Of a DNA stretch of 64,000 nucleotides, positions 27,524 through 32,712 are shown one piece after another. The notes under the pieces were generated by a model. The model was not told the DNA's origin and searched no databases. It was given only the letters and a program-made list of their open reading frames with translations. The stretch covers positions 338,334,001 to 338,398,000 of the forward strand of contig OZ024740.1 of assembly GCA_964016885.1 (NCBI GenBank), in the 5' to 3' direction. The position numbers and the translations under genes are program-made. This stretch comes from Eledone cirrhosa (lineage: Eukaryota). The first letter of the stretch is position 1; each line of letters opens with the position of its first letter.

Positions 27524-27753
27524 ACAATTAAGTTAAAGATGTACATCCATATATGTATACTGAAATACTAGTATGTATATGAATACACACACGTATACAT
27601 ATGTAGATGTACCAAGTTTTTTTTTTCTCACTGGTCACTTTACTGTGAGTGGCCAGCTATTCTGTATGTAAACACACAGACAAACCGGTTTTTAGAGTCA
27701 TACTGGTTTTTGAGGAAACACCTTTCCTCTATTCTCCAGAAAGCCAGACAAGG

Positions 27754-27798
27754 AATATTGAACTAGTTTCGTTGTTGTTACAACTCATCAGCAATATT
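27754..27798 (-). ncRNA. Minimal type I hammerhead ribozyme (first of 7 minus-strand copies)
   Basis: aatattg CTGATGA gttg taacaa caac GAAAC ta GTT caatatt; other copies start at 28227, 28700, 29173, 29646, 30118 and 30591. Confidence 0.9.
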
Positions 27799-27857
27799 TA
27801 CCTATCTTCCGGCCTCTCTAGAGAATCGTAAAAGCACATATCGTTATATGCTTTTTC

Positions 27858-27892
27858 TATGAAAATTAGTAGTGGGCAGACTAATTTGCATA
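27858..27892 (-). promoter_or_regulatory. Octamer ATGCAAAT within an inverted repeat (one per unit)
   Basis: Minus strand tatgcaaattag-tctgcccacta-ctaattttcata; conserved in the diverged relative at 54214-54249. Confidence 0.5.
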
Positions 27893-30800
27893 GAGTGTGA
27901 GTAAGTACCGGTTCAACGGAGACGATAAAAACAAATAACGAAACGAAATTAAATTTCGTTTCGTTTGTAACTCACTTTTGTATGACTGACGCTTAAACAA
28001 TTAAGTTAAAGATGTACATCCATATATGTATACTGAAATACTAGTATGTATATGAATACACACACGTATACATATGTAGATGTACCAAGTTTTTTTTTTC
28101 TCACTGGTCACTTTACTGTGAGTGGCCAGCTATTCTGTATGTAAACACACAGACAAACCGGTTTTTAGAGTCATACTGGTTTTTGAGGAAACACCTTTCC
28201 TCTATTCTCCAGAAAGCCAGACAAGGAATATTGAACTAGTTTCGTTGTTGTTACAACTCATCAGCAATATTTACCTATCTTCCGGCCTCTCTAGAGAATC
28301 GTAAAAGCACATATCGTTATATGCTTTTTCTATGAAAATTAGTAGTGGGCAGACTAATTTGCATAGAGTGTGAGTAAGTACCGGTTCAACGGAGACGATA
28401 AAAACAAATAACGAAACGAAATTAAATTTCGTTTCGTTTGTAACTCACTTTTGTATGACTGACGCTTAAACAATTAAGTTAAAGATGTACATCCATATAT
28501 GTATACTGAAATACTAGTATGTATATGAATACACACACGTATACATATGTAGATGTACCAAGTTTTTTTTTTCTCACTGGTCACTTTACTGTGAGTGGCC
28601 AGCTATTCTGTATGTAAACACACAGACAAACCGGTTTTTAGAGTCATACTGGTTTTTGAGGAAACACCTTTCCTCTATTCTCCAGAAAGCCAGACAAGGA
28701 ATATTGAACTAGTTTCGTTGTTGTTACAACTCATCAGCAATATTTACCTATCTTCCGGCCTCTCTAGAGAATCGTAAAAGCACATATCGTTATATGCTTT
28801 TTCTATGAAAATTAGTAGTGGGCAGACTAATTTGCATAGAGTGTGAGTAAGTACCGGTTCAACGGAGACGATAAAAACAAATAACGAAACGAAATTAAAT
28901 TTCGTTTCGTTTGTAACTCACTTTTGTATGACTGACGCTTAAACAATTAAGTTAAAGATGTACATCCATATATGTATACTGAAATACTAGTATGTATATG
29001 AATACACACACGTATACATATGTAGATGTACCAAGTTTTTTTTTTCTCACTGGTCACTTTACTGTGAGTGGCCAGCTATTCTGTATGTAAACACACAGAC
29101 AAACCGGTTTTTAGAGTCATACTGGTTTTTGAGGAAACACCTTTCCTCTATTCTCCAGAAAGCCAGACAAGGAATATTGAACTAGTTTCGTTGTTGTTAC
29201 AACTCATCAGCAATATTTACCTATCTTCCGGCCTCTCTAGAGAATCGTAAAAGCACATATCGTTATATGCTTTTTCTATGAAAATTAGTAGTGGGCAGAC
29301 TAATTTGCATAGAGTGTGAGTAAGTACCGGTTCAACGGAGACGATAAAAACAAATAACGAAACGAAATTAAATTTCGTTTCGTTTGTAACTCACTTTTGT
29401 ATGACTGACGCTTAAACAATTAAGTTAAAGATGTACATCCATATATGTATACTGAAATACTAGTATGTATATGAATACACACACGTATACATATGTAGAT
29501 GTACCAAGTTTTTTTTTTCTCACTGGTCACTTTACTGTGAGTGGCCAGCTATTCTGTATGTAAACACACAGACAAACCGGTTTTTAGAGTCATACTGGTT
29601 TTTGAGGAAACACCTTTCCTCTATTCTCCAGAAAGCCAGACAAGGAATATTGAACTAGTTTCGTTGTTGTTACAACTCATCAGCAATATTTACCTATCTT
29701 CCGGCCTCTCTAGAGAATCGTAAAAGCACATATCGTTATATGCTTTTTCTATGAAAATTAGTAGTGGGCAGACTAATTTGCATAGAGTGTGAGTAAGTAC
29801 CGGTTCAACGGAGACGATAAAAACAAATAACGAAACGAAATTAAATTTCGTTTCGTTTGTAACTCACTTTTGTATGACTGACGCTTAAACAATTAAGTTA
29901 AAGATGTACATCCATATATGTATACTGAAATACTAGTATGTATATGAATACACACACGTATACATATGTAGATGTACCAAGTTTTTTTTTCTCACTGGTC
30001 ACTTTACTGTGAGTGGCCAGCTATTCTGTATGTAAACACACAGACAAACCGGTTTTTAGAGTCATACTGGTTTTTGAGGAAACACCTTTCCTCTATTCTC
30101 CAGAAAGCCAGACAAGGAATATTGAACTAGTTTCGTTGTTGTTACAACTCATCAGCAATATTTACCTATCTTCCGGCCTCTCTAGAGAATCGTAAAAGCA
30201 CATATCGTTATATGCTTTTTCTATGAAAATTAGTAGTGGGCAGACTAATTTGCATAGAGTGTGAGTAAGTACCGGTTCAACGGAGACGATAAAAACAAAT
30301 AACGAAACGAAATTAAATTTCGTTTCGTTTGTAACTCACTTTTGTATGACTGACGCTTAAACAATTAAGTTAAAGATGTACATCCATATATGTATACTGA
30401 AATACTAGTATGTATATGAATACACACACGTATACATATGTAGATGTACCAAGTTTTTTTTTTCTCACTGGTCACTTTACTGTGAGTGGCCAGCTATTCT
30501 GTATGTAAACACACAGACAAACCGGTTTTTAGAGTCATACTGGTTTTTGAGGAAACACCTTTCCTCTATTCTCCAGAAAGCCAGACAAGGAATATTGAAC
30601 TAGTTTCGTTGTTGTTACAACTCATCAGCAATATTTACCTATCTTCCGGCCTCTCTAGAGAATCGTAAAAGCACATATCGTTATATGCTTTTTCTATGAA
30701 AATTAGTAGTGGGCAGACTAATTTGCATAGAGTGTGAGTAAGTACCGGTTCAACGGAGACGATAAAAACAAATAACGAAACGAAATTAAATTTCGTTTCG

Positions 30801-31418
30801 TTTGTAACTCACTTTTGTATGACTGACGCTTAAACAATTAAGTTAAAGATGTACATCCATATATGTATACTGAAATACTAGTATGTATATGAATACACAC
30901 ACGTATACATATGTAGATGTACCAAGTTTTTTTTTTCTCACTGGTCACTTCACTGTGAGTGGCCAACAACAACGAAACTAGTTCAATATTCCTTGTCTGG
31001 CTTTCTGGAGAATAGAGGAAAGGTGTTTCCTCAAAAACCAGTATGACTCTAAAAACCGGTTTGTCTGTGTGTTTACATACAGAATAGCTGGCCACTCACA
31101 GTAAAGTGACCAGTGAGAAAAAAAAAACTTGGTACATCTACATATGTATACGTGTGTGTATTCATATACATACTAGTATTTCAGTATACATATATGGATG
31201 TACATCTTTAACTTAATTGTTTAAGCGTCAGTCATACAAAAGTGAGTTACAAACGAAACGAAATTTAATTTCGTTTCGTTATTTGTTTTTATCGTCTCCG
31301 TTGAACCGGTACTTACTCACACTCTATGCAAATTAGTCTGCCCACTACTAATTTTCATAGAAAAAGCATATAACGATATGTGCTTTTACGATTCTCTAGA
31401 GAGGCCGGAAGATAGGTA

Positions 31419-31463
31419 AATATTGCTGATGAGTTGTAACAACAACGAAACTAGTTCAATATT
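31419..31463 (+). ncRNA. Minimal type I hammerhead ribozyme (first of 3 plus-strand copies)
   Basis: Identical motif; other copies at 31892-31936 and 32366-32410; half copy at 30965-30990. Confidence 0.9.
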
Positions 31464-32712
31464 CCTTGTCTGGCTTTCTGGAGAATAGAGGAAAGGTGTT
31501 TCCTCAAAAACCAGTATGACTCTAAAAACCGGTTTGTCTGTGTGTTTACATACAGAATAGCTGGCCACTCACAGTAAAGTGACCAGTGAGAAAAAAAAAA
31601 CTTGGTACATCTACATATGTATACGTGTGTGTATTCATATACATACTAGTATTTCAGTATACATATATGGATGTACATCTTTAACTTAATTGTTTAAGCG
31701 TCAGTCATACAAAAGTGAGTTACAAACGAAACGAAATTTAATTTCGTTTCGTTATTTGTTTTTATCGTCTCCGTTGAATCGGTACTTACTCACACTCTAT
31801 GCAAATTAGTCTGCCCACTACTAATTTTCATAGAAAAAGCATATAACGATATGTGCTTTTACGATTCTCTAGAGAGGCCGGAAGATAGGTAAATATTGCT
31901 GATGAGTTGTAACAACAACGAAACTAGTTCAATATTCCTTGTCTGGCTTTCTGGAGAATAGAGGAAAGGTGTTTCCTCAAAAACCAGTATGACTCTAAAA
32001 ACCGGTTTGTCTGTGTGTTTACATACAGAATAGCTGGCCACTCACAGTAAAGTGACCAGTGAGAAAAAAAAAAACTTGGTACATCTACATATATATACGT
32101 GTGTGTATTCATATACATACTAGTATTTCAGTATACATATATGGATGTACATCTTTAACTTAATTGTTTAAGCGTCAGTCATACAAAAGTGAGTTACAAA
32201 CGAAACGAAATTTAATTTCGTTTCGTTATTTGTTTTTATCGTCTCCGTTGAACCGGTACTTACTCACACTCTATGCAAATTAGTCTGCCCACTACTAATT
32301 TTCATAGAAAAAGCATATAACGATATGTGCTTTTACGATTCTCTAGAGAGGCCGGAAGATAGGTAAATATTGCTGATGAGTTGTAACAACAACGAAACTA
32401 GTTCAATATTCCTTGTCTGGCTTTCTGGAGAATAGAGGAAAGGTGTTTCCTCAAAAACCAGTATGACTCTAAAAACCGGTTTGTCTGTGTGTTTACATAC
32501 AGAATAGCTGGCCACTCACAGTAAAGTGACCAGTGAGAAAAAAAAAACTTGGTACATCTACATATGTATACGTGTGTGTATTCATATACATACTAGTATT
32601 TCAGTATACATATATGGATGTACATCTTTAACTTAATTGTTTAAGCGTCAGTCATACAAAAGTGAGTTACAAACGAAACGAAATTTAATTTCGTTTCGTT
32701 ATTTGTTTTTAT

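Follow-up and report, generated by a model that had tools for sequence, protein, structure and literature searches.

How does a short non-coding repeat that carries a self-cleaving ribozyme find its way back into an animal genome? The question is raised by an array of hammerhead-bearing units in the octopus Eledone cirrhosa, which lies in the 64,000-nt stretch of contig OZ024740.1 analysed here (hereafter, the window). Metazoan non-LTR retrozymes, including the axolotl and newt satellite 2 types, have been described previously, and the sections of that work considered here propose that circRNA templates give rise to tandem cDNA and name Penelope-like elements (PLEs) as candidate mobilisers (Cervera and de la Pena 2020, PMC7229834). 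In the papers considered here, the return of animal retrozymes to the genome is ascribed to PLEs from co-occurrence and pLTR homology, with circles as templates, without insertion-level evidence. Here we report an analysis of the window array and its relatives across the genome, and conclude that the array is probably one recent insertion of a non-coding hammerhead repeat, copied into (TA)n by a PLE reverse transcriptase (RT)-endonuclease.

Layout of the array in the window

The array is composed of 11 near-identical 473-bp units, which are separated by three single-copy substitutions and two A-tract indels. TRF detected the 473-bp tandem period in two adjoining intervals of 7.3 and 3.7 copies with 99% matches, and no ORF of at least 100 aa was found inside the array, confirming the preliminary description of about 11 near-identical non-coding units. 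The unit has a low GC content (0.34-0.35) and is repeated as a whole, with no LTR-type arrangement; the array lacks an RT and GIY-YIG ORF, unlike an autonomous PLE. Ten complete 45-nt hammerhead motifs, spaced by 472-474 bp, have the stems and the ACUAGU palindrome reported earlier, with a stem I of 7 bp, a stem II of 4 bp and a predicted cut 3' of GUU. However, seven of them lie on the minus strand and three on the plus strand, and the array therefore consists of two head-to-head arms rather than one tandem (Table 1). The 5' ends of the two arms meet at the junction, where an eleventh, partial motif without CUGAUGA opens the plus arm, and both 3' ends of the array lie within (TA)n. The picture of a single array was thus incomplete: the inversion of one arm against the other, the fixed positions of the two 3' ends and the (TA)n target had gone unmentioned.

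Table 1. Features of the window array and its flanks. Unit position 1 is the first base 3' of the predicted cut.
Feature	Position	Strand	Remarks
Arm 1	27524..30965	-	7.3 units; 5' terminus on the junction side, unit 106; 3' terminus next to (TA)n, unit 237 ('S', the short start site)
Arm 2	30965..32712	+	3.7 units; 5' end at ~unit 455 in loop II of the partial hammerhead; 3' terminus next to (TA)n, unit 309 ('L', the long start site)
Head-to-head junction of the arm 5' ends	30951..30980	.	One base (30965) common to both
Natural 473-nt unit, cut to cut (predicted monomer/circle)	30984..31456	+	
Minimal type I hammerhead motif	31419..31463	+	Predicted cut 31456/31457
Other plus-strand hammerhead motifs	31892-31936, 32366-32410	+	
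Minimal type I hammerhead motif	30591..30635	-	Predicted cut 30598/30597
Other minus-strand hammerhead motifs	30118-30162, 29646-29690, 29173-29217, 28700-28744, 28227-28271, 27754-27798	-	
'Tail', unit 238-309 (72 nt)	32641..32712	+	At L end, missing from S end; predicted 13-bp hairpin at unit 266-296
Predicted small hairpin, unit 230-243	31213..31226	+	Loop carries S start site; weak prediction, pair probability ~0.5
(TA)n-rich target, left flank	27238..27523	.	
(TA)n-rich target, right flank	32713..33626	.	

A dispersed hammerhead family with a constrained predicted RNA fold

A search of the genome, suggested in the preliminary description, revealed thousands of copies: a 37-nt motif at no more than one mismatch gave 5,448 matches against 0 for the reversed control, so the hammerhead motif is not a chance occurrence, and a further motif search gave 9,547 matches. 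The unit length of the family is 465-473 nt. A GUC sister subfamily exists beside the main GUU subfamily, 10 of 30 units carry a compensatory change in stem II, and the catalytic core is almost invariant (94-96 of 96 per position, about half of the loci being motif-selected). The Rfam search of the window returned no match at the gathering score. At the E-value level, the hammerhead scan that had been suggested gave Hammerhead_HH9 in the array at 37.7 bits (E 7.7e-8), under the gathering cut-off of 52. Matches to sraA and to miRNA hairpins at this level were taken as chance similarities of AT-rich hairpins, and no antisense ribozyme was seen in the same search.

The circular fold predicted for one unit (the one following the cut-to-cut unit of Table 1, with one base different) has an energy of -151.8 kcal/mol, compared with -91.1 +/- 5.2 kcal/mol for 60 shuffles (z -11.6). 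Inherited alleles preserve RNA pairing in 23 of 36 cases, whereas changes that arose within insertions do so in 24 of 126 (p 6e-7). These comparisons support a unit RNA that is predicted to be highly self-paired and appears to be under structural constraint. Dimer cleavage, as envisaged earlier, is supported at the level of prediction by co-folding, in which a pair of motifs forms a double hammerhead (-27.4 versus 2 x -12.0 kcal/mol). A GUU triplet and a 2-bp stem III predict slow hammerhead cleavage. The dispersed tandem copies, the compensatory change in stem II, the GUC sister subfamily and the fold-keeping inherited changes agree with the retrozyme reading first proposed, and support assignment of the window array to a dispersed hammerhead tandem family of the non-LTR retrozyme type, as judged from sequence.

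Two fixed 3' ends and a (TA)n target

The arms of ~110 insertions terminate on their 3' side at two set unit positions, ~236 and 309, neither of which is the ribozyme cut. In the 39 position-ordered insertions (L063, off the edge, was excluded, a short TA-rich match in L041 was removed, the pieces of L031 were merged and L114 was split in two), 64 of 65 arms end at unit 305-312 or 233-241, and (TA)3 adjoins 60 of the 65 arm ends. All 26 two-arm insertions are head-to-head, and 25 of these have one end of each kind, S and L (binomial p 3e-8). An independent set was selected by the L junction only, without the ribozyme (L147 was unparsed and L130 was removed as a duplicate of L129); its second arms end at S in 37 of 41 cases, at L in none and elsewhere in three, while one runs off the edge. 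Exact L/(TA) junctions number 2,129 in the whole genome (control, 0), and contigs of run X1, which may be the assembly's own sample, contain loose ends followed by (TA)n at unit 309 and ~240. The 5' ends are spread round the unit and do not accumulate as they would at a transcription start (Kuiper p 0.43 and 0.73). Arm lengths were not correlated within insertions (Spearman -0.07 and 0.16), and length was likewise unrelated to internal diversity.

These data bear on two alternative explanations. Fold-back chimeric reads can produce perfect head-to-head joins and near-identical units, the two properties that would make the array an assembly or long-read artefact; however, dozens of other loci share this anatomy, in which the arms are unequal, the ends are fixed and each locus has its own haplotype, and parts of the unit occur in contigs from four organisms, so that we regard both such an artefact and an ordinary satellite bearing a hammerhead by chance as extremely improbable. 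Mobilisation of the unit by RTE-type LINEs through ordinary twin priming would fit the presence of RTE-type ORFs on both sides of the array and their abundance in the genome, and L1 twin priming also yields head-to-head inversions. LINE priming begins at the RNA 3' end, and its second priming site is variable. Both sites in the unit are instead internal and do not vary, and the unit has no simple-repeat tail; they match the PLE anatomy in the same genome, which makes LINE mobilisation very unlikely.

Penelope-like elements as the probable mobiliser

PLE RT initiates internally at two adjacent sites that define a genomic tail, a property described as PLE-only (PMC11167929). The inverted arms of the window family, its pair of fixed 3' ends and its insertion into (TA)n point to PLEs as the mobiliser. 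Coding elements with RT and GIY-YIG are abundant in this genome, some with long open frames, and the CX2-5CxxC linker is present in five of six PLE families. The Neptune-type PLEs of the genome have the same anatomy as the retrozyme insertions: PLE families A-D likewise end in (TA)n, and head-to-head PLE pairs have one long and one short end in 7 of 7 and 5 of 5 cases (families C and D being left out of these scores). Named PLE homologues include bivalve proteins.

At locus L123, a repeat arm with an L end is joined to a 5'-truncated family B PLE arm with a short end, with no TA between them. This chimera is a single case among ~110 insertions and could instead result from a later deletion. 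A weaker possible repeat/PLE chimera was observed at L033. Where a PLE ORF lies close to a repeat copy, the two mostly appear to be neighbours on a common TA tract (L122, which was read directly, and L152). Among 38 GIY-YIG loci, obtained from 150 scored of 10,595 candidates, no coding PLE had unit sequence in its own 3' end; two unit matches at the 3' ends of GIY-YIG loci were nested repeat copies.

The template: circle, multimer or DNA-level growth

Stops within ~5 nt of the cut account for 5 of ~132 cDNA arrivals; since ~96% pass the cut site, the template is likely a circle or an uncleaved multimer. Stops near the cut are slightly over expectation in three windows, uncorrected (5 versus 1.8, p 0.04; 11 versus 5.7, p 0.03; 5 versus 3.4, p 0.25).

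A PLE-driven insertion could also proceed without any circle, from an uncleaved read-through multimer transcribed from an existing array, with lengthening by unequal crossing-over; the hammerhead would then be a remnant from a PLE pLTR and would seldom fire. In vitro, unprocessed RNA is the main substrate of the anole PLE, and cleavage is not needed (PMC11167929). Minor alleles are common to both arms in 6 of 13 insertions examined, such as in the terminal units of L134 and L014, and long arrays show higher-order repeats (7-mer and 8-mer in L063+118) and mosaics (L106 and L107+8). The window haplotype is identical to those of L050 and L171, so a uniform source array would suffice. On the other hand, private alleles are fixed in 19-23 copies over both inverted arms at L043 and L057+58, which implies amplification from one unit at some step, and arrays of 18-20 copies with 0-1 substitutions occur. 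The even spread of 5' ends, the nearly invariant catalytic core and the covariation of stem II likewise speak against copying without a circle, which we consider possible but rather doubtful.

At most one lineage-type internal difference is present in 77 of 86 insertions, in favour of a single haplotype for each. A monomer circle as the sole template is opposed by the alleles common to both arms and by the higher-order repeats and mosaics, and also by the arrays of at least four copies, of which only 19 of 42 are free of both repeated minor alleles and lineage mixing. The higher-order repeats of L063+118 were set aside as a trace of multimer circles, as their periodic blocks lie within a non-periodic array. 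From their sequences, long old arrays also grow by DNA-level duplication, and uncleaved or multimeric RNA was the likely template of some insertions, while long uniform arrays such as that of the window are, on balance, best read as multi-round copies of one monomer circle. The initial proposal of a rolling-circle copy of a monomer circle therefore stands as far as the passage of cDNA through the cut is concerned, but is not established beyond this, given mixed multi-unit templates and DNA-level duplication.

A-to-I editing of the unit RNA was assessed from base changes. The first 47 insertions gave an A>G to T>C ratio of 7:1 (p 0.03); in 107 insertions the ratio was 6:2 versus 20:25 (p 0.14), with A>G at 6 of 15 versus 20 of 223 (p 0.002). 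As the signal fell off in the larger set, editing is only suggestive.

Discussion

In the mechanism that we propose, multi-unit transcripts would be cut by paired (double) hammerheads and ligated into circles with extensive folding. The PLE protein, which is probably dimeric, would bind at the tail and nick both strands of a (TA)n tract, so that two cDNAs would be primed on one RNA at internal sites 309 and ~236. Each cDNA would travel back past the ribozyme site, for a mean of ~700 nt and sometimes for many rounds, and the two cDNA ends would then be joined head-to-head. A bolder form of this proposal, which we offer tentatively, is that a dimeric Neptune-type PLE protein might prime both target strands at the two fixed sites of one ribozyme-made circle, with both subunits rolling round it. 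Each insertion would then preserve, in frozen form, one event of twin rolling-circle reverse transcription. Any A-to-I edits on the circle would be fixed in all units of the new array, and the family would be a viroid-like lineage evolving as RNA and archived as DNA.

Compared with the metazoan non-LTR retrozymes in the sections of PMC7229834 considered here, the window family likewise comprises thousands of dispersed copies of a short tandem unit that is non-coding and GC-poor (35%) and carries a single type I hammerhead. Its predicted circle is strongly self-paired; as in HHR_Amex1, stem III is weak, with a palindromic loop requiring dimers. The unit of 465-473 nt exceeds their 170-400 nt range, although it falls within the 51-972 bp of a 2026 preprint, and the main subfamily has a GUU triplet, unlike these retrozymes. 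Head-to-head arms, two fixed internal 3' ends and (TA)n targeting are not described in those sections, in which expression and circles are shown, whereas the circle of the window family is a prediction from DNA sequence.

The likeness to EN+ PLEs includes a tandem plus an inverted 5'-truncated copy, a tail at one end only, an AT-rich or (TA)n target and a hammerhead upstream of the 3' end (in the sections considered of PMC8557442), as well as two internal start sites, one of them in a predicted stem-loop (PMC11167929). In contrast to EN+ PLEs, the window family has no ORF, many whole units per arm and a tail of ~72 nt rather than 30-40. Its arms use almost strictly one site each; the anole protein, by contrast, treated the two strands alike in vitro (PMC11167929). 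MRC1 and other non-autonomous Chlamys PLEs of Chlamydomonas are likewise non-coding PLE passengers with multicopy head-to-tail insertions; as described in the same sections of PMC8557442, Chlamys-type elements are without canonical hammerheads and have a 3' end like that of their autonomous partners, while the window family has a canonical core and no partner identified. For Xenopus retrozymes derived from PLE pLTRs, the same conclusion of non-autonomous PLE partners was reached from co-occurrence and pLTR homology, whereas our evidence is insertion anatomy and one chimeric insertion, with no homologous pLTR found; in that study, cleavage was absent from 8 of the 9 retrozyme dimers tested (bioRxiv 10.64898/2026.07.22.740005).

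The window array belongs to a young and abundant family that has the PLE-specific footprint of two start sites at thousands of sites and shows cDNA running through the ribozyme site. The use of one start site per target strand bears on the origin of PLE tails and inverted copies. One genome supplies a 473-nt RNA, PLEs with open reading frames and a (TA)n target, which together would provide a small in vitro system for circle versus multimer templates.

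Structure of the array and its distribution in the genome

The preliminary description had presented the 473-bp repeat as a single array. The near-identity of its units and its ten complete hammerhead motifs were recovered, but the motifs are split between the strands, seven minus and three plus, so that the feature consists of two arms, which join at their 5' ends and face outward with their 3' ends (see table). Between the units there are just three substitutions, each in a single copy, and two indels in A-tracts, and the array holds no ORF of at least 100 aa, in agreement with its assignment as non-coding. 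The proposed Rfam comparison matched HH9 (E = 7.7e-8), although with 37.7 bits, below the cut-off of 52. Beyond the (TA)n tracts there lies, on each side of the array, a broken RTE-type LINE copy whose RT region contains a PHD-like insert.

Features of the repeat and of related elements (window positions, or locus and contig coordinates; unit position 1 directly follows the predicted cut)
Feature	Location	Strand	Remarks
473-bp repeat array	27524-32712		between two (TA)n tracts
Arm junction	30965		5' ends joined
Minus arm		-	5' end unit 106, 3' end unit 237; 7.3 units
Plus arm		+	5' end unit ~455, 3' end unit 309; 3.7 units
RTE-type LINE copy	24216-27237	+	broken
RTE-type LINE copy	34024-35985	-	broken
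Second hammerhead family	L098:7600-10000; L101:100-3460; G000:C1:338298185		last site ~36 kb left of window
Short inverted element family	L096:6560-6730, 7500-7710; L099:3230-3330		
L063+L118 array	G000:C1:95941000-95960999		>39 units
L129 and L130	G000:C1:55968100, 55985770		same insertion twice
L123 chimeric head-to-head insertion	G000:C1:41489445-41493444		(TA)n at both outer sides

In the 3.0-Gb genome, a 37-nt motif gave 5,448 matches, a looser hammerhead pattern 9,547, and the exact junction of unit position 309 with (TA)n 2,129, with a control count of 0 for each. Insertions were collected as set 1 (39, in position order from the motif lists), set 2 (12, picked by similarity), and set 3 (60, of which 58 were used, picked by the 309 junction only, so that ribozyme-less arms could appear). 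Within set 1, 64 of 65 arm 3' ends fall at unit 305-312 (the L end, at ~309) or 233-241 (the S end, at ~236), the stretch between them forming a tail present only at the L end. All 26 two-arm insertions of this set are head-to-head, and 25 of them combine one L with one S end (33 of 35 after adding set 2). The lone L/L insertion of the two sets, L017, has arms that differ by 3.3%, which suggests that two templates were used. Second arms in set 3 carry the S end in 37 of 41 cases and the L end in 0, and a tiny inverted S-like stub accompanies 7 of 16 apparently single arms. The ribozyme cut position coincides with neither end. Among loci L119-L178, 5' junctions cluster at unit 251-281, close to the tail's 13-bp hairpin, with 14 of 92 in the bin 251-275, a pattern suggestive of joining by fold-back at this place. 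One insertion, found twice at a distance of 17.7 kb (L129 and L130), reflects either a segmental or an assembly duplication.

Ribozyme structure and selection on the RNA

The unit hammerhead has a canonical core, stem I, and stem II, and its stem III is reduced to two pairs within the palindrome ACUAGU. The predicted fold of a single motif mispairs the core, whereas two motifs are predicted to co-fold into a double hammerhead (-27.4 versus 2 x -12.0 kcal/mol); self-cleavage of the repeat RNA is predicted. A sister subfamily (10 of 30 units) combines a compensatory swap in stem II with a GUC triplet, and the core positions are conserved in 94-96 of 96 insertions, about half of which were selected by motif. 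Compared with 60 shuffles, the predicted folding energy of the circular unit, -151.8 kcal/mol, has a z of -11.6. Pairs are kept by 23 of 36 alleles common to at least three insertions versus 24 of 126 private within-insertion changes (p = 6e-7). Pairing is thus retained in shared alleles and less so in private changes, and hence the folded RNA strand is selected between insertions, not after insertion.

Template of the arrays

If the template were a cut linear monomer, cDNAs would be expected to stop at position 1. In set 3, where 1.8 stops would be expected within ~5 nt of the cut, five were observed in ~132 arrivals (p = 0.04, uncorrected); ~96% of cDNAs therefore read past it, with a mean run of ~700 nt. 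The 5' ends are otherwise uniform around the unit (Kuiper p = 0.43). At most one lineage-type internal difference was seen in 77 of 86 insertions, which makes random jumping among pooled monomers unlikely. For arrays like that of the window, we lean towards a monomer circle as template. Private alleles occupying 19-23 copies across both arms in L043 and L057+58 favor it, as do L043 and L060, with 18-20 copies and 0-1 changes, whereas the sharing of minor alleles between arms, seen in 6 of the 13 insertions inspected, and the higher-order repeats and mosaics of the longest arrays argue against the circle as sole route. The window array is uniform and shares its haplotype with L050 and L171, and therefore fits a monomer circle and a multimer as template indistinguishably. 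The L063+L118 array, whose higher-order repeats comprise exact 7-mers and 8-mers that have diverged slightly, is a retrozyme becoming a satellite. Private alleles fixed on both arms are enriched in A>G (6 of 15 versus 20 of 223), a hint that the repeat RNA undergoes A-to-I editing, the strand test being non-significant (p = 0.14).

Related hammerhead repeats

A second, distant hammerhead family has units of ~490-510 bp, 66-70% identity, and a GUA or GUU triplet; in L101, its 3' end is homologous and lies at the site equivalent to 309. Short (TA)n-flanked inverted elements carry their own hammerhead-like motif with an AGTACT- or AGTTCT-type stem III.

Penelope-like elements as candidate mobilizers

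Non-LTR retrozymes were defined as a class in PMC7229834, where circles were shown in coral, mussel, and axolotl, circle-templated tandem cDNA was proposed, and Penelope-like elements (PLEs) were named as candidate mobilizers; co-occurrence and pLTR homology back a PLE origin of retrozymes (bioRxiv 10.64898/2026.07.22.740005). As far as that class is described in PMC7229834, the repeat, known here from its sequence, shows the features that a sequence can reveal. The 473-bp repeat is real and represents a new family within a class already known; in the part of the literature that was searched, no prior description of it was found, nor any paper dealing with tails or inverted arms of retrozyme insertions.

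A PLE protein was shown to cleave and extend both target strands, with reverse transcription beginning at two adjacent internal sites that set the genomic tail (PMC11167929), and PLE insertions are described as tandem plus inverted copies at (TA)n targets, often with a tail at a single end (PMC8557442). The repeat shares the insertion features of PLE passengers. Elements with RT and GIY-YIG domains are numerous in the E. cirrhosa genome (10,595 first-look candidates, of which 150 were scored), with open frames of 938 and 1096 aa, and the CX2-5CxxC linker of the Neptune/Nematis type occurs in five of the six PLE families inspected. Elements of coding families A and B terminate in (TA)n with tails of ~66 and ~40 nt, respectively, and their head-to-head pairs combine one long and one short end in 7/7 and 5/5 cases. 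The 3' UTR of family A (L088, L089, L096; ~1.05-1.4 kb past the ORF) contains a variant hammerhead core, in which U3 and A8 replace C3 and G8, with the palindrome ACCGGT; related variants occur in families B and C. Among 38 loci, no coding PLE was found to share sequence with the unit, and hence none is named as the partner of the repeat.

In the chimeric insertion L123, a repeat arm of 2.7 units with an L end is followed by a 39-nt stretch of repeat, joined to a 2.46-kb 5'-truncated Neptune-type element of family B, which terminates at its short site. This looks like a single event that handled both RNAs, while a later deletion could yield the same structure. The value of the repeat family lies in its insertion-level evidence of PLE mobilization and in the small testable system that it offers.
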